The notes beneath the pieces were generated by a model that had not been told where the DNA came from, ran no database searches, and was given only the letters and a program-made list of their open reading frames with translations. Of a stretch of 64,000 nt of DNA, positions 5,474 to 45,652 are shown one piece after another. The position numbers and the translations under genes are program-made. Location of the stretch: contig JBMNFY010000017.1 of the NCBI GenBank assembly GCA_050949565.1, positions 768,001 through 832,000 of the forward strand, written 5' to 3'. Each line of letters opens with the position of its first letter. The stretch's first letter is position 1. The DNA comes from Kiritimatiellia bacterium (lineage in GTDB: Bacteria; Verrucomicrobiota; Kiritimatiellia; RFP12; UBA1067).

Positions 5474-5545
5474 GCAGAGACCTTTCCTGAAAATTATTCG
5501 CTACCGGTGACTTCAAGGGCGGCACGCAGGGAAGTACTCATATTG

Positions 5546-5561
5546 AGCACAACCTGTGCCA
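5546..5561 (-). promoter_or_regulatory. Duplicated pilin sigma54 promoter now facing pilC copy 1
   Basis: Identical TGGCACAGGTTGTGCT, 72 bp upstream of the pilC ATG at 5473. Confidence 0.7.
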
Positions 5562-7279: not shown

Positions 7280-7497
7280 AACCGTGATCCCAACTCCAAT
7301 TCACACTCAATGGGCGGTAATTATAGGGAAAATGGGTGTGAAAGGCAAGGATGGGCACGCACGCGTGACGGAACGCGAGTGCCTGATTAAACGCGCAAGG
7401 CATAAAACCGTCGGGAAAATCGAAAAAATCGATGGGATCGAATCTTTCGAATCTTTCGATTCTCTCGAAAAACAATTCCCGCTCAGGGCGACCGCCC

Positions 7498-8583: not shown

Positions 8584-8603
8584 GCAGAGACCTTTCCTGA
8601 AAA

Positions 8604-13400: not shown

Positions 13401-13514
13401 GGCGGCATGGCATGGCTCGGGTTTATTTAACCACGAAACACACGGAATACACGAAAAGGAAGCATGGTTTTTCATGAAGTTTCATGTGTTTCATGGTTCG
13501 GGTTTTGGAACCAC
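10495..13514. repeat. Tandem array of 21 complete 143-bp units plus a 17-bp partial unit
   Basis: Unit begins TCGGGTTTTGGAACCACAGAGAACACAG at 10495, 10638 ... 13498 (3003/143 = 21). The ORF track shows identical translations every 143 bp; no unique spacers. Confidence 0.97.
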
Positions 13515-27884: not shown

Positions 27885-29972
27885 ATGCCCAGAACCATAC
27901 CACTGGACAAGATCCGTAATATCGGCATCATGGCGCACATCGACGCAGGAAAGACGACAACCAGCGAGCGCATTCTCTTTTATTCCGGCAAGAACTATAA
28001 AATCGGCGAGGTACACGAAGGCGCCGCCACCATGGACTACATGGCGCAGGAGCAGGAGCGCGGCATCACAATCACCTCGGCCGCGACTGCCGTGATGTGG
28101 CGCGAGCACCAGATCAGCTTGATTGACACCCCCGGACACGTGGACTTTACGGCCGAAGTGGAGCGTTCGCTGCGCGTGCTTGACGGCGCGATCGCCCTGT
28201 TCTGCGCGGTGGGTGGCGTGCAGCCGCAGACCGAGCAGGTGTGGCGTCAGAGCGAAAAATATGCCGTGCCCAAGCTGTGCATGGTCAACAAGATGGATCG
28301 CGTCGGCGCTAACTTCTTCAACGTGGTCAATGAGATCCGCTACACGCTCGGCGGCAATCCGGTCGTCATGGTCTATCCGATGGGCGCAGGCGAGTCCTTC
28401 CGAGGTGTGATCGATCTGCTGACAATGAAAGCGCTGACCTTTGACGATGCCTCGCGCGGCATCAAGGTTATCGAGCAGGAAATCCCAGAAGAGTATCGTG
28501 AGGAGTGCGAACGTCTGCGTGTCGAACTGGTCGAGAAAGCGGCCGAGCAGGACGATGCCCTGATGAACAAGTACTTTGAAACCGGCGAGTTGACCATCGA
28601 AGAGATCAAGGATGGTATACGCAAAGGCACTATCGCGCGCACGATCGTCCCCACCTTCTGCGGCACGGCATTCAAAAACAAAGGCATCCAACCGCTACTC
28701 AACGGTGTGATCGACTATCTGCCTTCACCTCTGGATGTTGGCGTCGTGGCCTCTGCCGACAATCCGGACGATAAGCGTAACCCGGACGACAAAGAGCCAT
28801 TCGCGGGGCTGGTGTTCAAGATTGCCACAGATAAGCACATGGGTAAGATCGCCTTTGTGCGTATTTACTCGGGAACGCTGAACGTGGGCGACACGGTCCT
28901 CAACAGCACGATGGATCAAGACTGCCGTATCGGACGCCTCTTCCGCATGCACGCCAACCATCAGGAAGCGTTGGAAGAAGCACATGCGGGCGATATCGTG
29001 GCTGTAATCGGTCTCTCGAAATCACGTACCGGCGACACGATCTGCGACCCGAAGAGCCCCATCGTGTTGGAGTCAATTGAGTTCCCCGCGCCGGTGATTG
29101 CGATTGCGATCCGCCCGGCTTCGCGCGGCGACAACGAGAAACTCGGCAACGCGCTGAACGCATTGGCGCAGGAAGACCCGACTTTCGTCGTTACCTTCGA
29201 CCAAGAGACCAGCGAGACCATTATCGCCGGCATGGGTGAACTTCACCTCGAGATCATTGTGGATCGTTTGCGCCGCGAGTTCGGCGTCGTATGCGAGGTC
29301 GGCAAGCCCGAGGTCGCCTACCGCGAGACGATCCGCCATCAAGTCGATGGCGAATACAAACACGTCAAGCAGTCCGGCGGTCGCGGCCAGTACGCTCACG
29401 TCTGTCTGCGTATTGAGCCACAAGAGCCGGGACGCGGCTTCTCCTTTGTCAACGAGGTCAAGGGCGGCGTGATCCCCAGCGAATACATCCCTGCCGTCCA
29501 GAAGGGTATTCTCAAGGCCATGGAGAGCGGCCCCTGCGGCGGCTTCCCCGTGGTGGACGTCAGAGTGGTCGTCTATTTCGGCTCGTACCACGAGGTCGAC
29601 TCGAACGAATTCGCTTTCGTCGAATGTGCGCGCCAGTGCTTCAGGCAACTCTTCCTCAAGGGCAACCCGCAGCTTCTGGAGCCGGTCATGAGCGTCGAGG
29701 TGGCGGTGCCCGAAGAGTATATGGGCACGGCGACCGGCTCGATCTGCTCGCGTCGCGGCCGCGTCGATGGCATGGACGACAAAGGTGGCAATAAGCTGGT
29801 GCGCGGCTTCGTCCCGCTCAGTGAGATGTTCGGCTATTCCAACGCGATCCGCACGGTCACCCAGGGACGCGGCACCTTCACGATGACCTTCGAGCGTTAC
29901 GAGGGCGTGCCCTTCGAACTCGCCGAGGCGATCATCGAGAAACGCAAGAAGGAAGGCAAAGTCCGCGGCTAG
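27885..29972 (+). CDS. fusA: Elongation factor G (stand-alone copy)
   Basis: AHIDAGKTT, ERGITI, DTPGHVDF, NKMD, GMGELHLEI, QSGGRGQY, SYHEVDS; no rpsL/rpsG/tuf neighbours. Confidence 0.97.
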   Translation: MPRTIPLDKIRNIGIMAHIDAGKTTTSERILFYSGKNYKIGEVHEGAATMDYMAQEQERGITITSAATAVMWREHQISLIDTPGHVDFTAEVERSLRVLDGAIALFCAVGGVQPQTEQVWRQSEKYAVPKLCMVNKMDRVGANFFNVVNEIRYTLGGNPVVMVYPMGAGESFRGVIDLLTMKALTFDDASRGIKVIEQEIPEEYREECERLRVELVEKAAEQDDALMNKYFETGELTIEEIKDGIRKGTIARTIVPTFCGTAFKNKGIQPLLNGVIDYLPSPLDVGVVASADNPDDKRNPDDKEPFAGLVFKIATDKHMGKIAFVRIYSGTLNVGDTVLNSTMDQDCRIGRLFRMHANHQEALEEAHAGDIVAVIGLSKSRTGDTICDPKSPIVLESIEFPAPVIAIAIRPASRGDNEKLGNALNALAQEDPTFVVTFDQETSETIIAGMGELHLEIIVDRLRREFGVVCEVGKPEVAYRETIRHQVDGEYKHVKQSGGRGQYAHVCLRIEPQEPGRGFSFVNEVKGGVIPSEYIPAVQKGILKAMESGPCGGFPVVDVRVVVYFGSYHEVDSNEFAFVECARQCFRQLFLKGNPQLLEPVMSVEVAVPEEYMGTATGSICSRRGRVDGMDDKGGNKLVRGFVPLSEMFGYSNAIRTVTQGRGTFTMTFERYEGVPFELAEAIIEKRKKEGKVRG

Positions 29973-30199
29973 CGTAACCGGTTCCAGGGTTCCAAGGTTT
30001 CAGCCTAAAAAGAGCAGTTGGGTGTGCGGATTTTGAGCAAAGCCCCGTAAGCATTGGGTTTCATCGCGATCCTCGCCGCACCTGTTTGGTGCAACACAGA
30101 GCGGTGCTTTGGACTCAAAATAGACGCGAGGCACACAGCATTTTTGGACGACAACGGTACAGGTGTTTAGACGCACTACCGGCCCAAAGAGCCAGATGC

Positions 30200-30621: not shown

Positions 30622-31037
30622 TTGTTCGTGCCTGCATCGGTTGGGATTTCTGTTGTTGCCACCTGTTTTTCCAATTTTCCGTCTGCCGTTTTTTTTATTT
30701 TATAGGTCGTTTTTATGACCGGCCTCGATGCCGTTTTTGCCGGGATCGCGTTGCTTGAAAGTGATAACGGAGGCGATGCCGGGTTCCGCCGTTGGAAAAT
30801 GCGTGCGGCTTGATGAACCCATTCTGAATCGACTGCATTTGTGCTTGTGCTTTCAATCAATCTACGCGCCTTCTCCATGTCTCCGATGAGAGCCGTCATC
30901 CGCTCAACTTCGTTTGAGGCATGACACATACATTGAACAACAACGAAACATGATAACCAAGCACTTACACGTTTGTTGGACGAAAGATACCATTCATTTT
31001 TCCTGTATCGCTTGGGTGTCACGTTTGACACCTTCAA
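30618..31037 (-). CDS. Hypothetical small protein, start uncertain
   Basis: ORF with a hydrophobic stretch near the N-terminus; stop overlaps the next ATG (ATGA). Confidence 0.45.
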   Translation of the reverse strand: MKVSNVTPKRYRKNEWYLSSNKRVSAWLSCFVVVQCMCHASNEVERMTALIGDMEKARRLIESTSTNAVDSEWVHQAARIFQRRNPASPPLSLSSNAIPAKTASRPVIKTTYKIKKTADGKLEKQVATTEIPTDAGTNK

Positions 31038-31158: not shown

Positions 31159-31854
31159 TTAAAACCGTTGCGGCTTGGGCAATCTGACGCGAATCGGTGT
31201 CTTCTCAACTGGGGGCGGGGTCGCCTCACCTTTCCCTGCACAGGGATCGCCATAGACCTCTATTTCTGTGTAGTGGTTGAAGTCGTATGTTTTCCCTTGA
31301 TCCATGATGCTCCCGTTGCTGTAAACTCGGACGTACCGGGCTTTGACACCGTTGACCGGAATTGAACGGCCCATGAAGGTTTCGATGTACTCCTTGTCTG
31401 TCCCTGCCCCCAGCCCGGCCGTGTTGTCGTGATCGTTGTTGAAAACGGTTTCCACGTTTTCCTTGAACATAACATCTGTGGAAAGTTGAATCACGACATC
31501 ACGGCAGACGTGAGGTTGGGGAAGGGTGCGCCAGATAAAAACGGCGTAGACGGACTGCGTCTTGCCGAGATCAATCTGTACCCATTGAAGCCCCGGGGCG
31601 AGTTTCACGGAAAACCCCTCGCCGCACTCTTTGTTGCCGTCAGTGATAACAGCAAGCGCTTCTGAGCCTACTTGAGTGTCGCTTGAAGAAACAGCACATC
31701 CAGAGGAGAGCAGCTTATCGCAACCCACGGGCACCATGATCGGCGGGCGAGGCTTCGCGCCGCGTGAAGGCTCGAGATTCGGAGACCGAATATCCAAAGG
31801 TCTCGCCGAAAGCGCTAACGGCAACAGCATCAAAACAAATCGAGTTTTCATCAT
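31159..31854 (-). CDS. Exported F5/8 type C (discoidin)-domain protein following cassette 3
   Basis: RBS GGAGGG, signal peptide MMKTRFVLMLLPLALSA, QWVQIDLG, ARYVRVYS, EIEVYG. Confidence 0.75.
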   Translation of the reverse strand: MMKTRFVLMLLPLALSARPLDIRSPNLEPSRGAKPRPPIMVPVGCDKLLSSGCAVSSSDTQVGSEALAVITDGNKECGEGFSVKLAPGLQWVQIDLGKTQSVYAVFIWRTLPQPHVCRDVVIQLSTDVMFKENVETVFNNDHDNTAGLGAGTDKEYIETFMGRSIPVNGVKARYVRVYSNGSIMDQGKTYDFNHYTEIEVYGDPCAGKGEATPPPVEKTPIRVRLPKPQRF

Positions 31855-31864
31855 TTTCCCTCCG

Positions 31865-33689
31865 TTATGGATCAATAAAATGGGGGTATTGCTCCCCCGA
31901 ACTAATTTCAGCCCCTGATGCCCCTTTTGTTACACGGAAGGTGACATTTGTGTCATTCCCCGCTACTGTAACAACCAGTCGAAAATCTTGACGAACCGTC
32001 GCTATCTGTTCGAGTGAGCCGGTGCCGACCTTATAACTCCAAACAATATCCCAGTACGCATAACCATCCGTAAAAGGTTGTTCTGCGGCATATCCGCTGA
32101 TTGTATCGCCCTGCTCCCAGTTTCCTCGGGTTCCTTTCCCTGAAACCCAGACAGCCCCAGGGCCTAACGGACGTGGCGAGTCTTCCCATGAATCATGCGG
32201 GTCAAAAGGGTGGTCGGCAAAATAACCGGGTGGCGTCTGGGTTTGCGCCCCACCTTCACAAACTGCAATGTTATAGAAATTAACTGAGTCCGGTTGAAAG
32301 TAAACGTCAGCTCCATACGCAACATGGAAAAAAGACTGATTTGGAAACGAAGAGCCAAACGGCCCCGACATATTTTCAAAAAGAATTCCTTGTGGCTGGA
32401 TTATATTTAATGTGATTGAATCTAACGTTGTTCCGGCGTCCGTGGTTGCATTAATCACGGCAACCGCGGTGCGATCAGGGGCGGTAAAGGTGATCGTGTC
32501 GCCGGTGTATCCGCTGACTTGCCCCCCTCCTTCTGTCACATTCCAAAGCACTCCGCTCAAGCCCTCGGGAACCAGCGAGAGCTTGACCTCCTCCCCGACT
32601 CCGATGGTTTTCCGCGCGCGGTTGGGCGGCGAGGTGGCGACGGTCTCGGTGACGATTCTCGGCACGATGATCCTGCCGGTTTCGCCGATGGTGATGTCAA
32701 ACTCGTTGCCGTGCCTCTCCTCCGTCAGCAGGCCGTACGAGTCTTCGACGATGAACGCGCCGGTGCCGTACAGTCCCTCGCGCGCGCCCGCCCACCCGCG
32801 CCGAGTCGTTGATCAGCGCCTGCCAGTCGTAATCGGGCTTCGGCGTGTCGTCGTACTCCGGGTCGGTGGCGACCCGCCGTAATTTAAAGGTATACGCCTT
32901 GCCTTTGACGAGCGCGTACTCTGCGGAGCCCGGCGTGCCGAAGCCGTCGTCGCAGTGGCGCACGACGGCTTTCCCCGTGGCCACTTCGAACACCTCGAAG
33001 TTCCAGCGCTCGGAATTACTGCTGCTCGGGTCGCCCACGGTGAGACTGAGCGTCACGCAGTTGGCCGGGTTGCCCTCGTCGTCCGGGTCGCAGGGACAGG
33101 AGCCGGGGCTGTGCGGCACCTCGTCGCCGTCCCGGACGCCGTCGCCGTCGGTGTCGGGGTTGGTCGGGTCGGTGCAGTAGCGGTATTCGTCGAGCAGTCC
33201 GAGGCCGTCGCCGTCGGCGTCCCAGACGGGCTGTTCGTCGTGGCGCACTCGCAGGGGCTCAGGCCGTACTGCAGTTCCCAGCCGTCGGGCAGCATGTCGC
33301 CGTCGCTGTCCCAGACCAGCGGGTCCAGACACGGCCAAACGGCCTTCAGGGCGACCTCGTCGCCGTCGGTCAGACCGTCGCCGTCGGTGTCCTCCAACAG
33401 CGGATTGGTATTGTGGACGTTCACCTCGTCGCCGTCTTCGAGGCCGTCGTCATCGGTGTCCTCGTTGAACGGATCCGTGCCGTGCTGATATTCCTGAAGG
33501 TTGGTCAGCCCGTCGTCATCCGGGTCGTCCGCCACGCCGTGTATGCCGTCGGTCTGGACCACGCGCGGGTTGAAATCATAGCGCACCTCCCATCCGTCGG
33601 GCAGGCCGTCGCCGTCGGTGTCGGGGTCCAGCGGATTGGTGTTGTGGACGTTGACCTCATCGCCGTCTGAGAGGCCGTCGCCGTCGGTG
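31865..33689 (-). pseudogene. Silent C-terminal cassette 3: DxDxDG repeats, conserved module and an unknown ~265-aa tip
   Basis: 32659-33689 is a near-copy of 39072-40087 of the 1717-aa gene. It lacks a signal peptide, carries a 1-bp deletion (~33228) and a 4-bp insertion (~32793), and diverges right after GRIIVPRI. Tip ORF 31865-32665 is intact. Confidence 0.85.
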
Positions 33690-33729
33690 GCGTCATTTTT
33701 GGGGGCTGAGTCGTGCGCCGAATACGAAC

Positions 33730-34812
33730 TCATGCAGGGCCGCGCTTTCTGCGGAGGCCGAACCACAGCGCTAATACGCCGAGAAGTCCCGCGATGGCGG
33801 CGAGCGCATAGAAACTCTTGCGTCCCGTCTCGGTCGATTTTTCTTGCGCGGCGTCGGTAGTGTCTGGAGCATCCGGCGGCGTCTCAAGGGCGATCCGCCC
33901 TTCTTCCGGCAACGGCTGGCTGAAATCGCGTTCTTTCAGCGCGGAGAGGTTAGTGTTGATACTGCTGAGAACTTTTAACTTGCGCATAGCCTCCAGCCGC
34001 GATTCCAATTCTCGCTTTGTCCGTTCCCGCCGTTCTGGGAACGGTTGTGCAAGAGCTCGTTCCAGCAGGGATAGACGTTCTTTGGATTTGGCGTATGTGG
34101 GGCTCATTTCGCAGAGCCAACCGTCTCCGCTACGGAAGACCCAATGTGTCGTTTCGTGGGACAAGCCGACTTGAAGGGCTTCACAAATGGCCAGTTTTTT
34201 CTCAGGAGACGATTCTTTCCAGGCTGTGTTCGCAACAGCGTAGACTCCAGAACGGTCCATATCGCTTGTCATTCGATCTGGACTGACAAGGAAACGCAAT
34301 AGAGCCCCCTTTGCCTCCTCTGCGTCAGCGACATGTAGGTAGGATGAGATAGCGATGACACGTAAAGTACCGCCCTTTGATGTGTCCGACGCCAAATCCA
34401 GAAGGAACGTTTTTGAGGCGACATCTTCACAAGCACCCAACCAGAAAACGGCACCCCTCATCCACCTTTCCGCATTTTTCAGCACTTGCATGTCCTGCGA
34501 TTCTTGGTTTCTTGCTTGTATCGTCGCTTCCGCTTCCCGATAGATATCTATCAACACCGCATGAAACCGTTCATCCGAAATGTTGGTGTCTTTCTTGAAC
34601 CTGACACCTTCGCTCCAGATGGACCAGTCTTCCGTCACCACGTCCACATCATGATCCACCATAAATTCCCGCCTGAGCATAGATTTCAAGTTTTCATCGT
34701 CTGGTGCCGATTCCTGTCGTGCGGTCTGGCCGAGAACTGGCTCCGCGCCATCCAGCGGAGTGACACAGGAAGCCGCAAACAACAGAACTATTCTAAACAA
34801 GATTCGCTTCAT
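33730..34812 (-). CDS. Putative immunity protein for cassette 2 (signal peptide, helical core, C-terminal TM anchor)
   Basis: 12 bp downstream of the cassette 2 stop with RBS AAAGGAG; N-terminal signal; C-terminal FYALAAIAGLLGVLALWFGLRRKR. Function inferred from position. Confidence 0.65.
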   Translation of the reverse strand: MKRILFRIVLLFAASCVTPLDGAEPVLGQTARQESAPDDENLKSMLRREFMVDHDVDVVTEDWSIWSEGVRFKKDTNISDERFHAVLIDIYREAEATIQARNQESQDMQVLKNAERWMRGAVFWLGACEDVASKTFLLDLASDTSKGGTLRVIAISSYLHVADAEEAKGALLRFLVSPDRMTSDMDRSGVYAVANTAWKESSPEKKLAICEALQVGLSHETTHWVFRSGDGWLCEMSPTYAKSKERLSLLERALAQPFPERRERTKRELESRLEAMRKLKVLSSINTNLSALKERDFSQPLPEEGRIALETPPDAPDTTDAAQEKSTETGRKSFYALAAIAGLLGVLALWFGLRRKRGPA

Positions 34813-34824
34813 GACACGCTCCTT

Positions 34825-36290
34825 TCAATGTCTGGGTTCCCGGAAACCCATAGCGTCCAGCCCCACGCCGACCGGGTAGGGATCCGGCAGGGCGGGGCCG
34901 GTTCCCGACACGTTGCCGATCGCGATATCCCACTTCTGCGGATTCGCCAAGTAGAACATCAGCAGACGCTGCACCAGTTCGCCATGCGTGAGGCCGGGAT
35001 CATGGTGTCCCGTGCCCTCCCCGCCGCTCCAGTTGGATGATCCGGAGCGGGCTTCGCTCACGGCATCATTGGCGCGATCATAGCGGATATCGCTCATGCC
35101 GCACGCATGCCCGATCTCGTGCGCCAGCGTACTCAGAGGTGCGCCTGATTCTACCGCCAACCCGCGTCGTGGGTCGCCGTACGCAAGATTCATGTCTGAA
35201 TGAATGCCAGCGGCGGACATATAGGTAATGTTATCAACGCAGTACAACTCAAGTCCGCCTGTCAAATTAGTATAAGAGCACATTTGACGGAATTCAGTGG
35301 AGTTTTCAATTACGAACCATTCGTCATGGTCGTGTACATGCTCTATCCCTGCCACATAGAAGCTCATGGCCGCTTGTTTGTAGATGCGGTTGGCTTCGGC
35401 GATCCAAGCGTCGACCGTGTCGGTGCTGACCGCCGCCACACCGTTGGAGTCGCAGATGATGTAGGCATGGATCGGCGTGACGGTCGGCTCCAGCACCCGC
35501 CCGTGGATGTAGGGACAGTCGGTCTCGGGCACGTCGCCGATCCGCACCTCCAGCTTGAAGTCCGATTCCACGGCCCCGCCCCGAATGATCGCCTCGCGCC
35601 CGGTGTTGTGGTTGCTGTAGAAGGTCACGCCGCCGTGGGCGACACTCCAGTGGATGTCCCCGTCCGTGACCGCGTCCTCCGGATCGACCTCGACGCGGTA
35701 CACCGCCAGCCCGCCCGCCGCCACGCCGGAGGGGTTGACGATGACGCCCGCGCCGACCGTGCCGCACGTGATGGGCTCCAGCTTGATCCTCGGCACGATG
35801 ATCCTGCCCTCTTTGCCGACCGTCATGTTGTTGAGTCCACCGTCCGTGTGTTCGGTCAGAAGCTGATCCGGATCTTCGACGATGAACGCGCCAGTATCGT
35901 ACAGTCCCTCGCGCGCGCCCGCCTCGTCCGAGCCGTTGATCAGCGCCTGCCAATCGAAGTCGGGGCCGTAAGAGCCAAGGTTGGTGGCGACCCATTTCAG
36001 GCTGAAGGTGTACGCCTTGCCCTTGACCAGCGCGTACTCTGCGGAGCCGGGCGTGCCGAAGTTTTGGTCGCAGTGGTGGTAGACGGCTTTTCCCGTGGCC
36101 TCCTCGAAGACATCCAGGTTCCAGCGCTCGGAATGGCTTCCGCTCGAGTCGCCCACGGTGAGTTTCAGCGTCACGCAGTTGGTGGAACTCCCGCCGTCCG
36201 AGGCGTCGGTCGGACAGGAACCGGGGCTGTGCGGCACCTCGTCGCCATCCCAGACGCCGTCGCCGTCCAGGTTGAACGGGTTTTTGTGTG
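34825..36290 (-). pseudogene. Headless C-terminal cassette 2: conserved module plus zinc metalloprotease tip
   Basis: NPFNLDGDGVWDGDEVPHSPGSCP...GKEGRIIVPRI is homologous to the main gene. Tip has TLAHEIGHACGMSD (HExxHxxGxxD) and a later LLM Met-turn-like motif. Frame intact but no signal peptide; the ORF-track start at 36486 lies inside the preceding gene. Confidence 0.8.
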
Positions 36291-36383
36291 TGTCTCGCAT
36301 CTTTCGAAAAGCTCCACATTCGCGGGCTTTTGCTCTCATCGATATTGCTCCAAGTTTTTTTGAGAAAACCACTCGTGCTGGTA

Positions 36384-37244
36384 CTATTCGAAACGCTCTT
36401 GTGTTTTTCTGCAAAACAACAACAAAAACCCGACACACACAAGGATTGCAATACATCCCAAAAGCACAACCAGCACAAGCCTGCAACTATGTTTTTTCGG
36501 ATGGGTTTGTTCACAAGGGGCTTCGACCAGCGTTTCTTCGGTACGATCAATGATGGAAGGATTGATTGGTCTCGCTTCAGTGACGGATAAAGTTCCTAAT
36601 GTGCCTTGCGAAGCAGATTTCTGGACGATTGGCTTTCGGGGCTGTTTGGAATTGGCTACTTGATCCTCTCGCATCGCCGCCTCGAACTGTTCCAGTTTCC
36701 TGCGGCTCTCACCTGTAAGCAGACGGTCATATTGATCTACTAAGTCTGGCCGATCATGAAATATCTTTCGAGACCGGACCACTATACCTTGAATGTCTGG
36801 TTTGTCATACTCGCGAACAAGGAGCCCAGACAAGCGCCCTTCCGTTGGACTCTGGGCCCATTTAAAGAACTTCCTGTCAATCTTACCAGCTTCCACGGCA
36901 TCTGCCATTGCATTCAAGAACGCGACGAACGTGGCCCTTGTCATTTCCCACGTAGACATGGCGATAATGGCTATTTGGTAGTCATTGGACGTTATCTCAT
37001 CAAGATGCGTAAGGATGAATTCAGACGAAGCCGCCAATTCTTTCTGGAAGGCAACATAGGCCTCTTTTTTCCCAAGGATAAAATAACTGTCGATAAAGCC
37101 CACCCCATCCTCAATGCCCATCCTTCGGGCTTCTGCTTCAAGGCGTTGAACACGTTCTCGATAATAAGCAATACTGTTCGCCTGTATGGCTATGGGGATC
37201 ATGCTTACACTTATCAACGCGAGTAATGGCAGAAACATTTTCAT
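36384..37244 (-). CDS. Orphan putative immunity protein, paralogue of 37403-38236
   Basis: Shares DRKFFxWAQxPxEGxL and LTGESxxKLExxEA with 37403-38236; signal peptide and C-terminal TM. Confidence 0.75.
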   Translation of the reverse strand: MKMFLPLLALISVSMIPIAIQANSIAYYRERVQRLEAEARRMGIEDGVGFIDSYFILGKKEAYVAFQKELAASSEFILTHLDEITSNDYQIAIIAMSTWEMTRATFVAFLNAMADAVEAGKIDRKFFKWAQSPTEGRLSGLLVREYDKPDIQGIVVRSRKIFHDRPDLVDQYDRLLTGESRRKLEQFEAAMREDQVANSKQPRKPIVQKSASQGTLGTLSVTEARPINPSIIDRTEETLVEAPCEQTHPKKHSCRLVLVVLLGCIAILVCVGFLLLFCRKTQERFE

Positions 37245-37333
37245 GGCTCATACTTCCTGAATCCTGATGTCCCGTCAAGGAAGAAACGGTACTTCTTGTT
37301 TACTGTTCCGGACACGGAACCTGCACCGATCCC
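37241..37333 (-). pseudogene. 30-codon relic of a toxin C-terminus
   Basis: Translates GIGAGSVSGTVNKKYRFFLDGTSGFRKYEP* vs main gene GIATGSLAGKIHKKYPAFLDGTSGFRKYEP*; stop overlaps the next ATG (ATGA). Confidence 0.85.
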
Positions 37334-37402
37334 GTGATCAAGGGCCGGAAGGCAGAGTCGGATCGTGTCGATTTGCAAACGATAGTTCACAGGGCAATCA
37401 CT

Positions 37403-38236
37403 TCAGAGGCTTCGCAAGAACCAGACCGCAAAGGTGACGATAAAAACCAATGCCACGACAAGCAGGAGCCACACAAAGCCCGACCCCCGAATGGGCGTTG
37501 GAACCGGTGGCAATGGAGGCGCTATCTCATTGCTAACGTTGGAGCCGTATGACTCCAGCGATGTCCGCTCGGTTTGCGTGCACATCGAGGCGGCATGGTT
37601 GTTCGCAGGCGATTTTTCGTTGTTTTGATGTCGAATCGTCCGGCCAGAAGATGGAGGAGCCAATCGTGCCTCATAGTCCTCGAGTTTCTTTTTGCTCTCG
37701 CCCGTCAGCATCGCATCGTAGGTAGCGATCTTCTCAGGGACATCCTGAAATATCTTCTTCGCGCGCATTATGACGGTCTGCGCCTTGCTGTCTGCATGAT
37801 GCTTTATCAACACATTACACAGCCCGCCCTCTGGGGGAAATTGCGCCCACATGAAAAACTTCCTGTCAAGAGTCCCGCTTTCGACAAGTTCGGCAACAGT
37901 GTCAAGGAAATCCAAATAGGATGACACAGCCATTCTGCCGGTAGAGATCATAACCATTGCTTTCCCTGACTCGGTTGGCGCCACTTCATCCAAGTGATGA
38001 AGAACAAACGGCCACGCCTCAACCATCTTGTCTTGGAGAGCGACGCATTCCGCTTTGCGATGTATAACGTGGAACACGTCACCAAGCCCCTCGGCATCAC
38101 GCGCCCCAATAGAACGAGCCTGCATCTCGGCACCGGAAACAAGCCCCCGGATGCTTGCGATTTCATTTGAATCGTCAGCCGAGGCAATCATGGTTCCTTT
38201 AAGCGCCAACGCCAAAAGTACTAATGTTAATTTCAT
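37403..38236 (-). CDS. Putative cognate immunity protein (signal peptide, C-terminal TM anchor)
   Basis: ATG overlaps the stop of the 1717-aa gene (ATGA 38233-38236); N-terminal signal; C-terminal FVWLLLVVALVFIVTFAVWFLR. Confidence 0.75.
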   Translation of the reverse strand: MKLTLVLLALALKGTMIASADDSNEIASIRGLVSGAEMQARSIGARDAEGLGDVFHVIHRKAECVALQDKMVEAWPFVLHHLDEVAPTESGKAMVMISTGRMAVSSYLDFLDTVAELVESGTLDRKFFMWAQFPPEGGLCNVLIKHHADSKAQTVIMRAKKIFQDVPEKIATYDAMLTGESKKKLEDYEARLAPPSSGRTIRHQNNEKSPANNHAASMCTQTERTSLESYGSNVSNEIAPPLPPVPTPIRGSGFVWLLLVVALVFIVTFAVWFLRSL

Positions 38237-41200
38237 GGTTCGTACTTCCTAAACCCCGATGTTCCATCAAGAAAGGCTGGATACTTCTTATGTATCTTCC
38301 CGGCGAGAGAACCAGTGGCAATACCCTGTCCATCGTAGTCCACGATGCCCACATGGCCGGAACCAGCAGGGTTTGGATGGCCGACTATGAATCCGGGTTG
38401 TGGATAGGTTGGGTTCGGAATGAGAATCCAGTGATCAATATCCGTCTGTACACCCGGCGGGAAAATGGGGTGCGTGTCATCTTGGCCTGCCCATTGGTTC
38501 GCTGATGGCGGGTCTCCTCCTAGGTAGCCGCCAATCAAAGGAACCGTCGCTCCTGCTTGCGCAGCTCGATGAGCCACGAAAATGTTGCATTTGTTGGCAC
38601 CTGCAGCAACCTCTGGAAACCCGTACTGAGCGGGAACGACATCAGAAACCTCGTAGTCGGAGTTTCCCAAAAAACCCTTTGCCGCATTCCTGATGTTAAC
38701 TTGCATCTGTGTGTCCGCGACACCGAAGGCATCAGGATCGCCAGCCATTCCATAACCGTTAGCCTCATCACTCGTACGCTCATACACCTTTTCACACGAT
38801 ACAGTTCCTTCGGCACTGAGAACGGCCTTGATTCTGAACACTCCGCTTTGGGTTGTCGTGTGGGTATATGTCTTGCCGCTGGCCGATGTCCCGAAACTAG
38901 TCCAAGCCTCCCACAATCCATCTGCTTTAAGTCTTTGATAATACCACTTTGGTTCTTCGGCAGGTGGCACGTAGGAGTCTGGAAGAATATTTGCCTTCAT
39001 GGTAACGTTGTTTCCCTTCTTCACCACGAGCCCGTCGGGAGGTGCTCCGACCAGCTCAACAGATTCAATCTTCGGCACGATGATCCTGCCGGTTTCGCCG
39101 ATGGTGATGTCAAACTCGTTGCCGTGCCTCTCCTCCGTCAGCAGGCCGTACGAGTCCTCGACGATGAACGCGCCGGTGCCGTAGAGCCCCTCGCGCGCGC
39201 CCGCCCGCGCCGAGTCGTTGATCAGCGCCTGCCAGTCGAAATCGTGCCCCTCATCAAGGTTGGTGCCGATCCACCGCAGGCTGAAGATGTACGCCTTGCC
39301 CTTGACCAGCGCGTACTCCGCGCTGCCCGGCGTGCCGAATCCGTCGTCGCAGTGGCGCACGACATCCCTCCCGGTGATCTCTTCGAACACCTCGAAGTTC
39401 CAGCGCTCGGAATTACTGCTGCTCGGGTCGCCCACGGTGAGACTGAGCGTCACGCAGTTGGCCGGGTTGCCCTCGTCGTCCGGGTCGCAGGGACAGGAGC
39501 CGGGGCTGTGCGGCACCTCGTCGCCGTCCCAGACGCCGTCGCCGTCGGTGTCGGGGTTGGTCGGGTCGGTGCAGTAGCGGTATTCGTCGAGCAGTCCGAG
39601 GCCGTCGCCGTCGGCGTCCCAGGCGGGGCTGTTCGTCGCGGCGCACTCGCAGGGGCTGAGGCCGTACTGCAGTTCCCATCCGTCGGGCAGCATGTCGCCG
39701 TCGCAGTCCCAGACCAGCGGGTCCAGGCACGGCCAAACGGCCTTCAGGGCGACCTCGTCGCCGTCGGTCAGACCATCGCCGTCGGTGTCCTCCAACAGCG
39801 GATTGGTATTGTGGACGTTCACCTCGTCGCCGTCTTCGAGGCCGTCGTCATCGGTGTCTTCGTTGAACGGATCCGTGCCGTGCTGATATTCCTGAAGGTT
39901 GGTCAGCCCGTCGTCATCCGGGTCGTCCGCCGCGCCGTGTGTGCCGTCGGTCTGGACCACGCACGGGTTGAAATCATAGCGCACCTCCCAGCCGTCGGGC
40001 AGGCCGTCGCCGTCGGTGTCGGGATCCAGCGGATTGGTGTTGTGGACGTTGACCTCATCGCCGTCTGAAAGGCCGTCGCCGTCGGTGTCCCGCTTCCGGG
40101 GCTTTGTGCCGCGCTGATATTCCTGAAGGTTGGTCAGCCCGTCGTCATCCGGGTCGCCGTCCGCGCCGTCATCGCCCGACGCGGAAAGCGGGTTCAAGCC
40201 GTTGTCGACCTCCCATCCGTCGGGCAGGCCGTCGCCGTCGGTGTCCTTCAGCAATGGATCGGTGCCGTGGACGTTGACCTCGTCGCCGTCCGAAAGGCCG
40301 TCGCCGTCGGTGTCGGCGTTCAGCGGGTCGGTGAAAGTCTGCGGGCCGCCGACCAGAGCCAGCGAAAAGGTTATGCCGCCCCCCAGATAGCGGACCGTGC
40401 CGTCCGTGAAGGAGCGCCCTTCGGCCTGGCCCGAGCCGTTCGCTCCCCACGCGGCCACCTCTCCCGTCCCCGTGCAGGCGAGCGTGTGGTGGGCGCCCGC
40501 GCCGATCAGGGTGGCCGGCCCGAGACCCGGCGGGACTTGGTTCTGGCCGGATGCGCCGTCGCCCCAGCAGACGACCGCGCCGTCGGCGGTCAGCGCCGCG
40601 GTGTGGTCCCCCGCCGCCGCGACGGTGACGGCGTTTGTCAAGTCCGGCGGCACATCGCACTGGCGGGCGCTGTTCTGACCCCAGCAGACGACCGCGCCGT
40701 CGGCGGTCAGCGCCGCCGTGTGGAAGAAGCCCGCCGCGACGGCGACGGCGTTCGTCAGCCCGGCGGGCACGTCGCACTGATGGACATAGTTCTGACCCCA
40801 GCAGACCACCGTGCCGTCGGCGCGCAGCGCAGCGGTGTGGTAGGCGCCGGCGGTCACGGCCGAAACGTTCGTGGCCGAGTCCGGCGGCGTCAGCACATAA
40901 TGGCCCCCGCCGCCCCAGCAGACGACCGTGCCGTCGGCGCGCAGCGCCACGCTGTGCTCATCGCCGGCGGCGGCGGAAACGATGTTGGTCGCCTGCGGCG
41001 GCGGCGAGCACTGCCCGCGGTTGTTCCTGCCCCAGCAGACGGCCGTGCCGTCCCCCCTCACGGCGACCGTGTGGAAGAACGCTGCGGCGGCCTCCTTCAC
41101 ATTGAGCAGCCAGGCCGGGCGGGGGGCGGCGTCCGCCCCCGCGTACGGCGCGCCCCACTCGACGACGCGGTATCCCGCCGCCTCCAGGCTGTCGGAAAGG

Positions 41201-43386
41201 CCGTCGCCGTCAGAGTCGGGGTTCGCGGGCGAGGTGCCCAGGGCAAGCTCCGCGCCGTCCTCCAGTCCGTCGCCGTCCGTGTCCCGCACGAGCGGCGAGC
41301 CGCCCGACCCGAAATGATAGGCGATCGTCATGCTGTTGGTGATAAAAGGCTGGTCGTATGAGACGGGGAGGTTGATGGCGGCGCCGGGACCCTGCGCGCC
41401 CAGCGTCGCCGACGCGCCGGTGTTGTCCCCCGCAGTGTCGGCGTAGCGGACGCAGACGGTGTTCGTCGCGTCCGCAGGGATGACGACCTGGAACGAGACG
41501 CGGGCAGAAGAGTTCGTGTAGAAGCCCATGTCGCGGTATTCGATCACGCAGTGACGCGCGCCGTCCACCGTCACGTCCGCCACGGTGATCCGCGTGGCGG
41601 GGGCGTCGGGCGTGGCGGTGCGGGCGTAGAGGTTGTCCCAGTGGGCCGCCACGGCGAAATGCCTGAGGGAGAGAGTGAGGGTGCCCGTGAGGGCGCGGTT
41701 GTAGTTTTGGCTTTCGATCCAGCCGTCCACCGGCCTGGACCGGTCGATGAGGTACACGACGCCGTTGATGTCGAGCAGGGCGTTCGTGCAGACCGCGCCG
41801 CCGATGCGGACGGGGAACGGGAGCGCGGCCGGGATCAGGCCTGAGTTCAGGTTGGTGCCGCTGAGGACGGTTGTCCCGCCGGATGCGTCGAACCACGGGA
41901 GCGCCGCGGTCTCCCACCAGGCGGCCTCGATGCCGTCGGGGACGCCGTCGCCGTCGCTGTCGGGGTTGCGCGGGTCGGTGCCGGCGCGGAATTCGGCGAC
42001 GTTGGGCAGGCCGTCACCGTCGGGGTCGCCGTGCGCGTCGGCGGGGTCGAGGGGATCGAAGAGGTTGTCGAGTTCCCACTTGTCGTCCATGCCGTCGCCG
42101 TCGCTGTCGGCAAGGTCGAAGCGCGTCCCGTGCACCCACTTCTCGCTGGCGTCGGTCAGCCCGTCGCCGTCGGTGTCGGCGGCGTCGGCGAGGCGGAAGA
42201 AGCCGGTGTCCGTCAGCCAGACGGCGTTGGTGCAGATGACGTTGGTGTGCGTGACGCCCGGCGCGTAGGCGGACGGCGCGGTGTTCGTGACGCACGCGGG
42301 GGCCGGGGCCTCCGGCGGCGGGGGCAGGTCGGCGCGGGGGATGAGCAGGTCGACCCCGGCATCATCGGGATCAAGCGCGACCCGCCACGGGTTCGTCCAC
42401 GCGGGCGGAACCAGGGTGGGGGTGAAGAAGATGTCCAGCACGCCGCCCGCGAGCGCCGTGCCCGCCGGCCACGCGGCGGAGAGCGCGACGCCGTTCGTAT
42501 CGGATGAAATGCCGGTGAAGACCAGCCCGGTCAGCGCGGCGGGCGAGCGCGACGGCGCGCCGGCCGTGCTCCGCGTCCCCGCCGTCCCGCCGGAGCGGTA
42601 GACGCCGAGATCCTCCCGGAGGAGGAAGGTGAATGCCATCTCGACGTGCGAGGGCAGGAAATACTGCCGCGTGGACAGCCATGCCGAACGGTAAATGATC
42701 CGGTCCGGCGTCCGCATGCGGCGCGAGGGCCGCGCCAGCAAATCTTGATACACCCGCTCGGTGTCGAAGAAGTCTGGAGCCGTGCCATCGACGCTGTGGA
42801 GCCGGGCGATCCAGTCCGCCGACCAGACGCCGGCGTCGGCGGCGACCGACCAGAAAGGTTCGCCGGCCGCGTTGTAAAAGAGCATGTCGCCGCTGAGGTC
42901 GTCCGCGCACAGGAGCGCGCGCCACGCCTCGACGCCGTTGGCTTCCTCCGGCACGAGCCCCGCCAGGAACTCGGCCGGGAACCCCGGGGCCGCGGCGTCC
43001 AGGGGGATGACGCCGCCGTCCAGCCTGACCCGCCGTTCCGGGTCCGGCATGAGCACGCCCGCGCCCCGCGCCAGTTCGCGCTCCAGCTTCAGCGCCATGT
43101 CCAGCGGCGTGGCGGGCGTCCTGTACACGGAAGCGGGGCGGGAGGCGGGCGCGTCCGCCGGTTCCGCGTCTTCCTGCGCCAACGCATGGATCGATGCGAA
43201 AACGAGACCTGCGGACACGCATACCGCCGCGACAAGAAGCACAAGGCCTTTCGAAGCTCTTGCGAACCCCCTCGTGGCATGGGCGTCCCGCCCATGAAAC
43301 ACGGGCAGGATGCCCGTGTCACACTTGTTCACGACGGATTTTGCAAGAGCTTCTTTCTTTTTGTTATTTGTTCCGCCGTTTTCCAT
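38233..43386 (-). CDS. 1717-aa secreted multidomain protein: TSP3-like DxDxDG repeats, NIDO-like domain, RCC1/BLIP-II repeats, conserved module, C-terminal NlpC/P60/CHAP-like amidase; putative polymorphic toxin
   Basis: Signal h-region GLVLLVAAVCVSAGLVFASIHALA; many DTDGDGL repeats; HTAALxADGxVVCWGxN repeats; tip KCNIFVAHRAAQAG...SGHVGIVD (Cys/His dyad). Confidence 0.85.
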   Translation of the reverse strand: MENGGTNNKKKEALAKSVVNKCDTGILPVFHGRDAHATRGFARASKGLVLLVAAVCVSAGLVFASIHALAQEDAEPADAPASRPASVYRTPATPLDMALKLERELARGAGVLMPDPERRVRLDGGVIPLDAAAPGFPAEFLAGLVPEEANGVEAWRALLCADDLSGDMLFYNAAGEPFWSVAADAGVWSADWIARLHSVDGTAPDFFDTERVYQDLLARPSRRMRTPDRIIYRSAWLSTRQYFLPSHVEMAFTFLLREDLGVYRSGGTAGTRSTAGAPSRSPAALTGLVFTGISSDTNGVALSAAWPAGTALAGGVLDIFFTPTLVPPAWTNPWRVALDPDDAGVDLLIPRADLPPPPEAPAPACVTNTAPSAYAPGVTHTNVICTNAVWLTDTGFFRLADAADTDGDGLTDASEKWVHGTRFDLADSDGDGMDDKWELDNLFDPLDPADAHGDPDGDGLPNVAEFRAGTDPRNPDSDGDGVPDGIEAAWWETAALPWFDASGGTTVLSGTNLNSGLIPAALPFPVRIGGAVCTNALLDINGVVYLIDRSRPVDGWIESQNYNRALTGTLTLSLRHFAVAAHWDNLYARTATPDAPATRITVADVTVDGARHCVIEYRDMGFYTNSSARVSFQVVIPADATNTVCVRYADTAGDNTGASATLGAQGPGAAINLPVSYDQPFITNSMTIAYHFGSGGSPLVRDTDGDGLEDGAELALGTSPANPDSDGDGLSDSLEAAGYRVVEWGAPYAGADAAPRPAWLLNVKEAAAAFFHTVAVRGDGTAVCWGRNNRGQCSPPPQATNIVSAAAGDEHSVALRADGTVVCWGGGGHYVLTPPDSATNVSAVTAGAYHTAALRADGTVVCWGQNYVHQCDVPAGLTNAVAVAAGFFHTAALTADGAVVCWGQNSARQCDVPPDLTNAVTVAAAGDHTAALTADGAVVCWGDGASGQNQVPPGLGPATLIGAGAHHTLACTGTGEVAAWGANGSGQAEGRSFTDGTVRYLGGGITFSLALVGGPQTFTDPLNADTDGDGLSDGDEVNVHGTDPLLKDTDGDGLPDGWEVDNGLNPLSASGDDGADGDPDDDGLTNLQEYQRGTKPRKRDTDGDGLSDGDEVNVHNTNPLDPDTDGDGLPDGWEVRYDFNPCVVQTDGTHGAADDPDDDGLTNLQEYQHGTDPFNEDTDDDGLEDGDEVNVHNTNPLLEDTDGDGLTDGDEVALKAVWPCLDPLVWDCDGDMLPDGWELQYGLSPCECAATNSPAWDADGDGLGLLDEYRYCTDPTNPDTDGDGVWDGDEVPHSPGSCPCDPDDEGNPANCVTLSLTVGDPSSSNSERWNFEVFEEITGRDVVRHCDDGFGTPGSAEYALVKGKAYIFSLRWIGTNLDEGHDFDWQALINDSARAGAREGLYGTGAFIVEDSYGLLTEERHGNEFDITIGETGRIIVPKIESVELVGAPPDGLVVKKGNNVTMKANILPDSYVPPAEEPKWYYQRLKADGLWEAWTSFGTSASGKTYTHTTTQSGVFRIKAVLSAEGTVSCEKVYERTSDEANGYGMAGDPDAFGVADTQMQVNIRNAAKGFLGNSDYEVSDVVPAQYGFPEVAAGANKCNIFVAHRAAQAGATVPLIGGYLGGDPPSANQWAGQDDTHPIFPPGVQTDIDHWILIPNPTYPQPGFIVGHPNPAGSGHVGIVDYDGQGIATGSLAGKIHKKYPAFLDGTSGFRKYEP
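43253..43353. mobile_element. 101-bp MITE/REP-like element inserted in frame in the signal-peptide n-region
   Basis: Terminal inverted repeats GAAGCTCTTGC / GCAAGAGCTTC enclosing palindromes CATGGGCGTCCCGCCCATG and CACGGGCAGGATGCCCGTG. Confidence 0.75.
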
Positions 43387-43773: not shown

Positions 43774-44625
43774 TTATTTTTTCGCTCTAACGGGCGGCGG
43801 CGTGCGTCCGAGCTGCGCGAGTACGAGCTTGAGCGCGCGCCAGACCTCAGTCTTGGCACGCTTGAGTCCTGTTGCATCGCCCGCTGACTCGAAACGCAGA
43901 ATATACGCGGGATGATAGGTCGGCATCACGGGGATCCCCTCGTAGCTAGTCCAATTCCCTTGCAGGCGCGAGACACCGGCCTGCGTCGCCAACAGGCCGC
44001 GAATAGCGGTGCCGCCCAGCAGCACAATGGTCTTGGGCTGCACGATGCGGATCTGTTCGCGCAAAAAAGGCAGACACACCCGCATCTCGTCGGCCGTAGG
44101 CGTGCGGTTGTTCGGCGGACGGCACTTGCAGATATTTGCGATGAACACATCGTCGCGTGTATAACCCATTGCCTCGATCATCTTGGTCAGGAACTGTCCG
44201 GCCGCGCCGATAAACGCCAATCCTTCACGGTCCTCGTCGGCACCCGGTGCCTCGCCAATAAACATCACATCGGGCGCACATGGGTTCCCCTGCCCCGGCA
44301 CACAGCGGTTGCGCTGCTTGTACAGGTCGCACGCTTCACACGTTTCGATGCGTGCGGCAATCTCATCCAATGCCTGACGGCGCTGCTCCGGCGTGCGCGA
44401 CACTGACGCGGCCGGAGTCGTGGAAGTCATGGACCGAGGGGCGGACGCAGACGCCGGACGCTGTGGCGCGGCAGGTGCCGCCGCAACGCGCGCACGGCCG
44501 TCAACGCTGCGGGGGCCCAGCGCGCGGAGCACCTCGGGATCAAGCGACACCGTGCGCTCGCCCAGCTCTTTGAGCAGCGTCAGATGATCGGTCAACCCGT
44601 CAATGATCTCGGTCCACTCAGACAT
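43774..44625 (-). CDS. Uracil-DNA glycosylase family 4 (4Fe-4S)
   Basis: CEACDL, FIGEAPG, NICKCRPPNNR, PTYHPAY; start MSEWTE at 44625. Confidence 0.93.
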   Translation of the reverse strand: MSEWTEIIDGLTDHLTLLKELGERTVSLDPEVLRALGPRSVDGRARVAAAPAAPQRPASASAPRSMTSTTPAASVSRTPEQRRQALDEIAARIETCEACDLYKQRNRCVPGQGNPCAPDVMFIGEAPGADEDREGLAFIGAAGQFLTKMIEAMGYTRDDVFIANICKCRPPNNRTPTADEMRVCLPFLREQIRIVQPKTIVLLGGTAIRGLLATQAGVSRLQGNWTSYEGIPVMPTYHPAYILRFESAGDATGLKRAKTEVWRALKLVLAQLGRTPPPVRAKK

Positions 44626-44629
44626 CGCG

Positions 44630-45652
44630 TTACGCCTCTGCAAACCCGTTGGGGTTTTGAAACTGCCAGCGCCAGGCGTCTTCGCACATGACGCGCAGAA
44701 CGCGTGTGGCGCGCCAGCCCAGTTCGCGCTCCGCCTTTGAGGGATCGGCCCAGCATTCAGCCACGTCGCCGGGGCGGCGCGCCTGAATCGTGTAGGGAAC
44801 TTTGCGGCCCGACGCCTGCTCAAAGGCGGCGACCACCTCCAGGACACTCGATCCCTTGCCGGTGCCAAGATTGAAGATCGAGAGACCGGGCTTTGACGCG
44901 AGTGCTTCAAGCGCCTTGAGATGGCCGAGCGCAAGATCGACCACATGGATATAGTCGCGGATGCCGGTGCCGTCCGGCGTCGGGTAATCGTTGCCGAAAA
45001 CCGCCAGACTCGGGCGACGCCCGACCGCCACCTGCGCCACAAAGGGCAGAAGGTTATTGGGAATGCCGGCAGGGTCTTCGCCGATCCGGCCGCTGGGGTG
45101 CGCACCGATCGGATTGAAATAACGCAGCAACGTGATATTCCATGTGGGATCGGCCTTCTGCACATCGCGGAAAATCTGCTCCATCATCAGCTTCGACCAG
45201 CCGTACGGATTGGTCGCGCCAGGCGTGGGGAAGTCCTCGCGAATCGGGACTGACGCGGGATCGCCATAAACCGTGGCAGAAGAGCTGAACACGAGATTGC
45301 GACAACCTGCGGCGGCCATCGCCTCGCACAGGGTAATCGTACCGGTAATGTTGTTGCCGTAATAGGTCAGCGGAATGCGAACCGACTCGCCGACCGCCTT
45401 GAGCGCGGCGAAATGAATCACGGCGTCAACCGGGCCTTCTGCCTGAAACACCTGGTCGAGCGCCTCTCGATCCCGGATGTCGGCCTTATGAAACGACACC
45501 GTCTTGCCAGTGATCTCTGCGACGCGACGCAGGCTTTCTTCGCTACTGTTGCAAAGATTGTCGATCACCGCGACCTCATGTCCGGCATTCAACAGTTCAA
45601 CGACCGTGTGGCTGCCGATATACCCGGCTCCGCCCGTAACCAAAACCTTCAT
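44630..45652 (-). CDS. galE: UDP-glucose 4-epimerase
   Basis: [46 protein letters not shown]. Confidence 0.97.

Follow-up and report, generated by a model that had tools for sequence, protein, structure and literature searches.

Polymorphic toxins exported through Sec have been described before. Table 1 of the survey by Zhang, de Souza, Anantharaman, Iyer and Aravind (2012; PMC3482391) includes a Sec/type II secretion system (T2SS) class with beta-propeller repeats "in all bacteria"; the same text lists an NlpC/P60 toxin class and reports that recombination with toxin-immunity cassettes exchanges the C-terminal toxin and leaves immunity genes in strings behind the full gene. Here we analysed a locus of a Kiritimatiellia bacterium that resembles this design. 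It occupies positions 31159-43386 of a 64,000-nucleotide stretch of contig JBMNFY010000017.1 (hereafter the window) and consists of a gene for a large Sec-signal protein ending in an exchangeable C-terminal domain (the tip), followed by headless cassettes with alternative tips and by small genes for exported proteins. We put the probability that it is a polymorphic toxin-immunity locus at about 0.78. Three testable features of polymorphic toxins were observed: a constant body with variable C-termini, downstream partners that co-vary with them, and cassettes with 3' homology. The initial annotation of the window had proposed the same reading, which is well supported by the diversity of tails, by the different tips of near-identical carriers and by the pairing of tip and next gene.

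Every element of the locus lies on the minus strand, from the 1717-aa gene (38233-43386) to a 238-aa open reading frame (ORF). In order of transcription, the 1717-aa gene is followed by a 277-aa ORF, a 31-codon tip relic, a 286-aa ORF, cassette A, a 360-aa ORF, cassette B and the 238-aa ORF; the arrangement first proposed, a secreted carrier with alternative C-terminal cassettes downstream, was confirmed element by element. The 1717-aa protein begins with a hydrophobic signal-like segment (about residues 47-70, read from the sequence) and continues with TSP3 repeats, an RCC1 propeller, more TSP3 repeats, a conserved module and the tip. Pfam matched only TSP3_bac (eight stretches, E 4.3e-52), RCC1_2 (six stretches, E 1.3e-47) and WD40_RLD at E ≤ 0.01. 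The predicted lack of RHS, FHA, LXG and MafB hallmarks thus held at this threshold, LXG and MafB-N included, and Pfam likewise gave no HINT, ZU5 or caspase processing domain, no PAAR, VgrG or Hcp fusion domain and no TPS domain or FHA repeats in this protein. NCBIfam returned TSP3-type matches only, CglD and MtsD among them, all far below their cut-offs. One proposal found no support in Pfam: the region at residues ~490-700, labelled as a NIDO-like domain, matches no Pfam family at E ≤ 1.

Both cassettes begin, as had been recognized, with DNA homologous to the region of the main gene just before its tip. In cassette A (34825-36282) the homology amounts to 76.6% over 488 nt (35786-36267 against 39068-39546), or 69% amino acid identity to residues 1277-1441 of the main protein; in cassette B (31865-33715) it reaches 93.4% over 1032 nt (32659-33689 against 39072-40087). 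In both, it stops right after the codons for GRIIVP(K/R)I (main residues 1433-1440), a common end that lies far beyond chance. When cassette B was compared with the main gene in 60-nt blocks, 56 to 60 positions were identical in each of eleven consecutive blocks; within the module the counts fell to 49, 47, 40 and 53, and the last full block was again identical at 60 of 60. Such mosaic identity is what repeated recombination would be expected to leave.

The 152-aa module that precedes the tip (39064-39519, main residues 1290-1441, ending GRIIVPKI) occurs only at this locus in the host genome. A search of 1.84 billion proteins with it yielded 156 representatives at E ≤ 1e-3, of which 49 reached E ≤ 1e-30. 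Tails were then compared in proteins that match the module strongly and continue for 120 aa or more after it, with the two window cassettes added: the 61 tails fell into 26 BLAST clusters, in line with the expectation that homologues would carry differing tips. Pfam names few of these tails; among 40 proteins it recognized PAD in three, Big_2 in three, DUF6973 in one and DUF900, an alpha/beta hydrolase match below the cut-off, in one. The bodies ahead of the module vary as well (RCC1 with TSP3, beta-helix with TSP3, LamG with TSP3). Judged by the record titles of 32 genome loci, the module-bearing metagenome-assembled genomes belong to Kiritimatiellia/Kiritimatiellae, Lentisphaerae, Verrucomicrobia, Akkermansiaceae and Phycisphaeraceae. 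The distribution of the module is patchy: it was present in 8 of 401 sampled genomes of the phylum, in 10 of 201 of the taxonomic family (host included) and in none of six other species of the genus, whose genomes are 56-89% complete. The AF2 model of the module (pLDDT 84.2) is a ten-strand all-beta sandwich. Its best structural match had a Z of 5.3 and its best Foldseek E-value was 4e-3, Pfam gave nothing at E ≤ 1, and the ESM Atlas offered one unnamed cluster at 0.80, below the level of trust.

Comparison with relatives showed different tips on closely similar carriers. A 1624-aa protein, P0013, matches the main protein without a difference in both the first and the second 100-aa block (100/100) and is 88-100% identical per block up to about residue 1000. 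Its module is 67% identical to that of the main protein and its tail is unrelated to the tip found there; its last 473 residues (1152-1624) are instead 76.5% identical to cassette A, zincin motif included. Another protein, P0012, carries an end of the cassette B type on a related RCC1/TSP3 carrier. A third case is locus L055, which has the same leader as cassette A of the window but, behind GRIIVPK, a different tip and a different exported 244-aa gene; the cassette A slot therefore holds different tip and partner units in different strains. In G356, a genome of the same taxonomic family, three module cassettes form an array interleaved with exported partner genes. These comparisons, which bear out the suggested tip swaps across strains, indicate that tips are exchanged between close relatives.

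The tip now attached to the main gene (tip 1; 38236-39066, main residues 1441-1717, 277 aa) was modelled with AF2 from 21 aligned sequences (pLDDT 92.4). Residues 1-117 are Ig/FnIII-like, and residues ~118-277 match NlpC/P60 and CHAP hydrolases. The best structural matches by VIA-align were 6bim_A (Z 11.1, root-mean-square deviation 2.8 over 116 aa), 8er5_B (Z 11.0) and 8ev5_A (Z 10.8), and NlpC/P60-CHAP chains made up 24 of the top 28 rows (Z 8.0-11.1). Two type VI secretion system (T6SS) effectors, Tae3 (4hz9_A) and Tse1 (3vpi_A), gave a Z of 10.3 and 7.5, respectively. Cys160, His238, Asp243 and Asp245 (main residues 1600, 1678, 1683 and 1685) are invariant in the 21 sequences, and Cys1600 and His1678 are the likely catalytic pair. 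By its fold, tip 1 is thus a predicted peptidoglycan peptidase. Other searches were less informative: Pfam CHAP matched below the cut-off (E 0.0035), Foldseek of the model against the PDB found the Ig-like part only and nothing at E ≤ 1e-3, and a PDB profile search with the tip alignment was swamped by the Ca-binding repeats of long rows and says nothing about the tip.

The 277-aa gene that follows (37403-38236) overlaps the stop codon of the main gene as ATGA. Its product, as read from the sequence, has a signal peptide, a domain of ~175 aa, a linker and a C-terminal transmembrane (TM) anchor. No Pfam or NCBIfam model matches the family formed by the 277-aa and 286-aa proteins, and a PDB profile search with it reached a best E-value of 0.28, to designed helical proteins. 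To gauge how regularly this family follows tip 1, we collected 395 stretches by pattern scan, 142 of which encode a relative; the 80 best were kept, and 74 of them have at least 500 nt after the tip stop. A partner was counted if its start fell between -60 and +400 nt from that stop. A homologue was found directly after the tip in 30 of the 74 loci by tblastn and in at least 63 by a profile iterated on the next ORFs. In a control scan of 1182 other ORFs of these loci, the profile matched 16, all on the strand of the tip. Six of these are next genes missed by the ORF rule, which would bring the count to 69 of 74; the others, which were checked less closely, look like extra partner copies nearby. 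The ATGA-type overlap (-4) recurs in 20 of 65 cases. The listed starts of the family look signal-like, although a crude rule flagged only 33 of the 62 complete ORFs. The signal-like N-termini of the partners and the C-terminal TM helices of those in the window fit toxins that act in the periplasm. Tip 1 also occurs on bodies that lack the module, for example with LTD and TSP3 or with Big_1, and the module stood upstream in only 4 of the 80 metagenome loci, many of which lie on short contigs; the tip and partner pair therefore appears to move between carriers. Tabulated in this way, tip and next gene travel together across carriers.

A complex was predicted between residues 110-277 of tip 1 and residues 21-198 of the 277-aa protein. 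Its score was 0.73, and the best of three controls reached 0.53; the mark applied is one that 58 of 80 solved complexes and 2 of 110 mismatched pairs attained, and custom alignments were used for the prediction, so that these calibration counts hold only roughly. The runs had at least 88% of their contacts in common, with a partner pLDDT of at least 89. Among the predicted contacts are residues 151-157 and 230-238 of the tip, adjacent to Cys160 and His238, and residues 181-189 of the partner, which supports the 277-aa protein as a putative inhibitor covering the active site of tip 1. The two families may represent a widespread pair of peptidoglycan peptidase and inhibitor with a testable predicted interface.

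Traces of an earlier tip lie immediately downstream. The relic (37244-37336) begins 67 nt past the 277-aa ORF, preserves the last 31 codons of a paralogous tip (68% amino acid identity to main residues 1687-1717 over 31 aa, E 9.5e-8) and ends KYEP-TGA, its stop overlapping the next ATG (ATGA). The 286-aa gene thus coupled to it (36384-37244) is paralogous to the 277-aa gene, the two products being 38.9% identical over 190 aa; the 286-aa protein starts with a signal-like segment and has a hydrophobic helix at its C-terminus. An intact tip of this type, tip 1' (71% identical to tip 1), is present in L055; the protein encoded directly after it is 99% identical to the 286-aa protein of the window, and the locus matches window 37340-35790 at 94.7% nucleotide identity. 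Because the whole tip 1' stands there before a near-identical gene, the 31 codons can be read as its remnant; the 286-aa gene is, on this comparison, the partner of the displaced tip. Locus L059 has a similar layout of tip, partner, tail relic and paralogous partner.

Cassette A joins the end of a TSP3 repeat and the module (36282-35782) to tip A (35784-34828), which comprises an Ig-like region and a zincin with the motif HEIGHACGMSD; Pfam Reprolysin_3 matched it below the cut-off (E 0.003-0.009). The 360-aa gene behind it (33730-34812), with an AAGGAG site 7 nt before its ATG, encodes a protein with a signal peptide and a C-terminal TM anchor. Homologues of this protein come directly after homologues of tip A in L083 (27% identity, E 1.8e-18) and L157 (34% identity, E 1e-35), that is, in both of the loci whose tip is at least 45% identical to tip A. 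Single-sequence tblastn found no homologue in 15 loci with distant tip A-like domains (22-38% identity), a distance at which the result is uninformative.

Tip A-like zincins (34-38% identity) also end four more large proteins of the host genome (open frames of 1289-1381 aa), at C17:1937117-1938037 (L162), C17:1944063-1944983 (L166), C17:1085358-1086350 (L168) and C2:52369-53211 (L170) of G000. None of the four has the module, and an exported ORF directly follows the zincin gene in the three examined (L162, L168 and L170). They are probably further toxin-partner loci on other carriers.

Cassette B consists of TSP3 repeats and the module followed by tip B (ORF 31865-32665). Relative to the main gene it has a 1-nt deletion in a run of C (~33231) and a 4-nt insertion (~32797), both as assembled; its module is in a different frame from the TSP3 part and the tip, each piece being open in its own frame. 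The full-length carrier P0012 ends in a tip of this type, as do cassettes in G356, L024 and L026; in L017, L024 and L026 such tips are followed by a 218/240-aa family that does not follow tip B in the window. What remains of the usual partner family is a 44-aa relic at 30852-30968 (minus strand; tblastn with the 427-aa protein of G356, 47.7% identity over 44 aa, E 1.5e-4), of which a 43-nt stretch (30884-30926) is 97.7% identical to L017. Cassette B would therefore be a spare, decayed or silent, that lacks its partner. At the far end of the locus, a 104-nt element (30004-30107) is 85.6% identical to a stretch abutting a truncated tip A cassette in G007 (L157), and 66 nt of it recur ~1 kb from a tip A-like gene in G356 (L159). 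Rfam gave no match to it, its fold z-score is -0.34, and neither of these two loci contains an EF-G gene.

The 238-aa gene (31159-31875) occupies the immunity position behind tip B, its ATG lying 11 nt after the tip stop with a GGAGGG site ahead. It encodes an exported F5/8-type-C protein (Pfam F5_F8_type_C_2, 28.9 bits against a cut-off of 27.8) with a signal-like N-terminus and no C-terminal hydrophobic helix. Its family is present in 96 of the 201 genomes of the taxonomic family, often in several copies, against 10 for the module, and no homologue was found in the other loci compared. We rejected it as the partner of tip B, and it probably stands outside the system. In related genomes, many of the stretches that match this family are crossed by exactly one in-frame stop (TGA, TAA or TAG), which could be a gene boundary or something else. 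Two proposals of the initial annotation were accordingly retained in part: its immunity-like genes stand for the 277-, 286- and 360-aa products and not for the widespread 238-aa one, and its second headless cassette stands as regards cassette and tip, with two compensating frameshifts and an exported gene that is not specific to the system.

The locus is flanked by an EF-G gene (27885-29972, plus strand) on one side and a UDG-family gene (43774-45165, minus strand) on the other; a GalE-type gene is also among its neighbours. The earlier claim that no exporter adjoins the locus was upheld: the nearest type II/IV-pilus-type genes (2796-10328) lie 21-35 kb off. No CdiB/TpsB gene is adjacent. The only Omp85/POTRA gene seen in the window (20883-23261) lies about 8 kb past the downstream end of the locus and resembles BamA; it stands beside an LpxD-type gene, the BamA- and LpxD-type genes together falling about 6-10 kb past that end. 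The host genome (G000; 4.66 Mb, 21 contigs, 92.4% complete) has six secretin matches. VipB/TssC (PF05943), the T6SS sheath protein, was not found in it, while the same search detected the E. coli genome used as control.

Elsewhere in the window, a tandem array (10495-13514) comprises 21.1 copies of a 143-nt unit at 100% identity and without indels. It has a GC content of 0.46-0.48 and a strong GC skew, separates a type II/IV-pilus-type ATPase gene from the next ORF, and matches no Rfam family at the gathering score. Two consecutive ORF pairs of equal lengths (457 aa and 361 aa; 2796-5473 and 5906-8583) resemble a tandem duplication; the second pair encodes a sigma-54 activator and a T2SS-F platform protein. 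A 449-aa ORF with a DDE_Tnp_1 transposase domain (50569-51918) lies ~7 kb from the locus.

Taken as a polymorphic toxin-immunity system, the locus might work as follows. The main gene would give rise to a Sec-exported protein whose first ~1290 residues form a constant body (N-domain, Ca-binding TSP3 repeats and RCC1 propeller), linked to the exchangeable tip by the beta-sandwich module. The current tip joins an Ig-like domain to an NlpC/P60 peptidase, which would cut the peptides of peptidoglycan in a periplasm, and the 277-aa protein, exported and tethered to the inner membrane by its C-terminal helix, would bind over the active site and protect the producer. The downstream region could then be both the history of the locus, in the form of 31 codons of an earlier tip with its intact partner gene, and its reserve, in the form of two cassettes of module and tip without promoter or signal, cassette A having a partner gene. 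By homologous recombination in the module or in TSP3 sequence, the main gene could acquire the tip of a cassette and, where one exists, the partner gene that goes with it. Toxicity, protection, the route out of the cell and entry into targets are inferred; that a type II system provides the exit is a guess.

Several observations weigh against this account. Support for toxicity and protection comes from a fold and a predicted complex, and the score of that complex exceeds the best control by exactly the required 0.20. The module, whose structural matches are weak and for which Pfam gave nothing, shows no likeness to a known pre-toxin, translocation or autoprotease domain that would explain how a tip enters the periplasm of another cell. 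The locus is not linked to a machine for delivery, and no T6SS sheath gene was found in the genome, which is 92% complete. The pairing of tip A with its partner rests on two loci, and cassette B is frame-disrupted and lacks the usual partner gene. Moreover, a secreted lytic enzyme whose inhibitor is required only while it is being exported would also be expected to show such pairing of tip and partner.

This last point leads to the chief competing explanation, which keeps the idea of an inhibitor: the proteins could be lytic or digestive enzymes, exchangeable hydrolase heads on a Ca-stiffened stalk that break other cells or necromass for food, with partners that shield the producer only during export. 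The tips do look like hydrolases (peptidoglycan peptidase, zincin, lipase-like, deiminase), digesters, landfill and wastewater are the habitats of the host, contact-dependent machinery did not turn up, and the partner is membrane-tethered in the periplasm of the producer; the four further zincin proteins, with exported ORFs after the three examined, would suit such a diet too. We nevertheless consider this explanation unlikely. An intact partner gene has been kept beside the 31-codon relic here, and likewise in L059, which is best explained by protection from the toxins of neighbours; intact partner genes beside dead tips therefore argue for defence. Arrays of silent cassettes and tips that change from strain to strain are, in addition, typical of conflict systems, and the module is patchy even within the family and genus of the host.

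A variable surface protein without any toxic role would account for less. Its tips would be binding or remodelling domains serving antigenic or phage-receptor variation, and the next genes would encode chaperones or anchors. TSP3 repeats do occur in cell-cohesion and gliding proteins, as the distant CglD and MtsD matches recall, and each tip begins with an Ig-like domain. The invariant Cys/His set in the NlpC/P60 fold of tip 1, the position predicted for the partner on its active site and the presence of the same tip and partner pair on unrelated carriers make such a role very improbable. Most improbable of all is an artefact of a collapsed or chimeric metagenome-assembled genome, an idea prompted by the 21-contig assembly and by the way contigs of other sequencing runs break in the module repeats. 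Two independently deposited sequences reproduce the junctions: L021 runs from tip 1 through the two partner genes and the relic into the start of cassette A with 100% identity over 3547 nt, and L053 is 98.3% identical over 2031 nt across tip 1, the 277-aa gene and the relic junctions. Similar arrays also exist in other genomes (G356, L059).

We also aligned assembled contigs of four sequencing runs from four studies to window positions 33700-39600. Near-identical contigs cover 33708-35518 (X13 record 9, 9 differing letters) and 36748-39090 (X15 record 31, 18 differing letters). In X13 and X14, word depth was 41-46 for the contig with tip A and the 360-aa gene against ~6 for tip 1 contigs, depth not being copy number. 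One X13 contig joins 36267 to 39525, an arrangement like that of P0013, with only 22 letters on one side of the joint; loose contig ends at 35785 and 39068 read into a tip B-like start and could equally be contigs of cassette B sharing the last bases of the module. We did not count any of the run contigs as evidence of recombinants.

If the polymorphic toxin reading is right, the TSP3/RCC1 body with its GRIIVP module may, more speculatively, be a new delivery platform of the Planctomycetes-Verrucomicrobia-Chlamydiae (PVC) group, one that brings periplasm-acting toxins to neighbouring Gram-negative bacteria without type V, VI or VII secretion and in which the module is both a handle for recombination and part of an entry or release step. 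We hold this proposal as doubtful. If true, it would add a further route to the eight secretory systems counted for polymorphic toxins in the 2012 survey. The locus itself raises the question of how a Sec-exported 180-kDa protein reaches the periplasm of a neighbour. Whatever the route, the module offers a searchable handle for a family of exchangeable-tip toxins, and the 26 or more tail clusters behind it, mostly without a Pfam match, are candidate new toxin domains with candidate inhibitors adjoining. Conflict between bacteria is little mapped for the PVC group and for the communities of anaerobic digesters, and a literature search for Kiritimatiellia with toxin or secretion returned no paper on such a system.

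Among known polymorphic toxins, CdiA and Rhs proteins carry recognizable motifs at the junction of body and toxin, VENN in the former and PxxxxDPxGL in the latter. The junction found here, GRIIVP(K/R)I at the end of a beta-sandwich, differs from both motifs, neither of which was searched for. The layout of the locus, on the other hand, recalls Rhs and CdiA loci (PMC3150448, PMC3967940): behind a full-length gene stand C-terminal cassettes, displaced or silent, whose upstream part is homologous to that gene and which have their own immunity genes. Unlike those loci, this one has no RHS/YD or FHA repeats, no TpsB/CdiB partner and no PAAR or VgrG. In its presumed mode of action it resembles the T6SS pairs Tae-Tai and Tse1-Tsi1, in which an NlpC/P60-fold toxin acts on peptidoglycan and an exported periplasmic partner neutralizes it, a likeness that the model of tip 1 suggests through its similarity to 4hz9_A and 3vpi_A. 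It departs from them in that the domain forms the tip of a 1717-aa Sec-signal protein, TssC was not found in the genome and the partner has no sequence relative in the PDB. TANFOR of Bacteroidetes (PMC7073777) and SitA of myxobacteria, which is delivered by outer membrane exchange (PMC5562445), are comparable as lineage-specific polymorphic toxins defined by a new N-terminal or carrier domain; going by those descriptions rather than by sequence, their carrier domains and phyla differ from those reported here.

The closest counterpart remains the Sec/T2SS class (PMC3482391), with which the locus shares export by a signal peptide only, a constant repeat-bearing 5' body, cassettes and an NlpC/P60 toxin. 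The text of the survey contains neither "TSP3" nor "thrombospondin" and mentions "RCC1" only in the name of a virus strain; the module here also differs in having no Pfam match, and HINT, ZU5 and caspase processing domains are absent. The initial annotation had recognized no named family. This is right in so far as no Pfam or NCBIfam model above its cut-off describes the carrier body as a whole, the module or the partners; as a claim to a wholly unnamed kind it would be too strong, since Sec-exported polymorphic toxins with beta-propeller repeats are already listed in Table 1 of that survey. What appears to be new is the TSP3/RCC1 body, the beta-sandwich junction module ending in GRIIVP, the partner families and the host group. 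The overall design is thus that of a known kind of Sec-exported polymorphic toxin, on a carrier that seems not to have been described.

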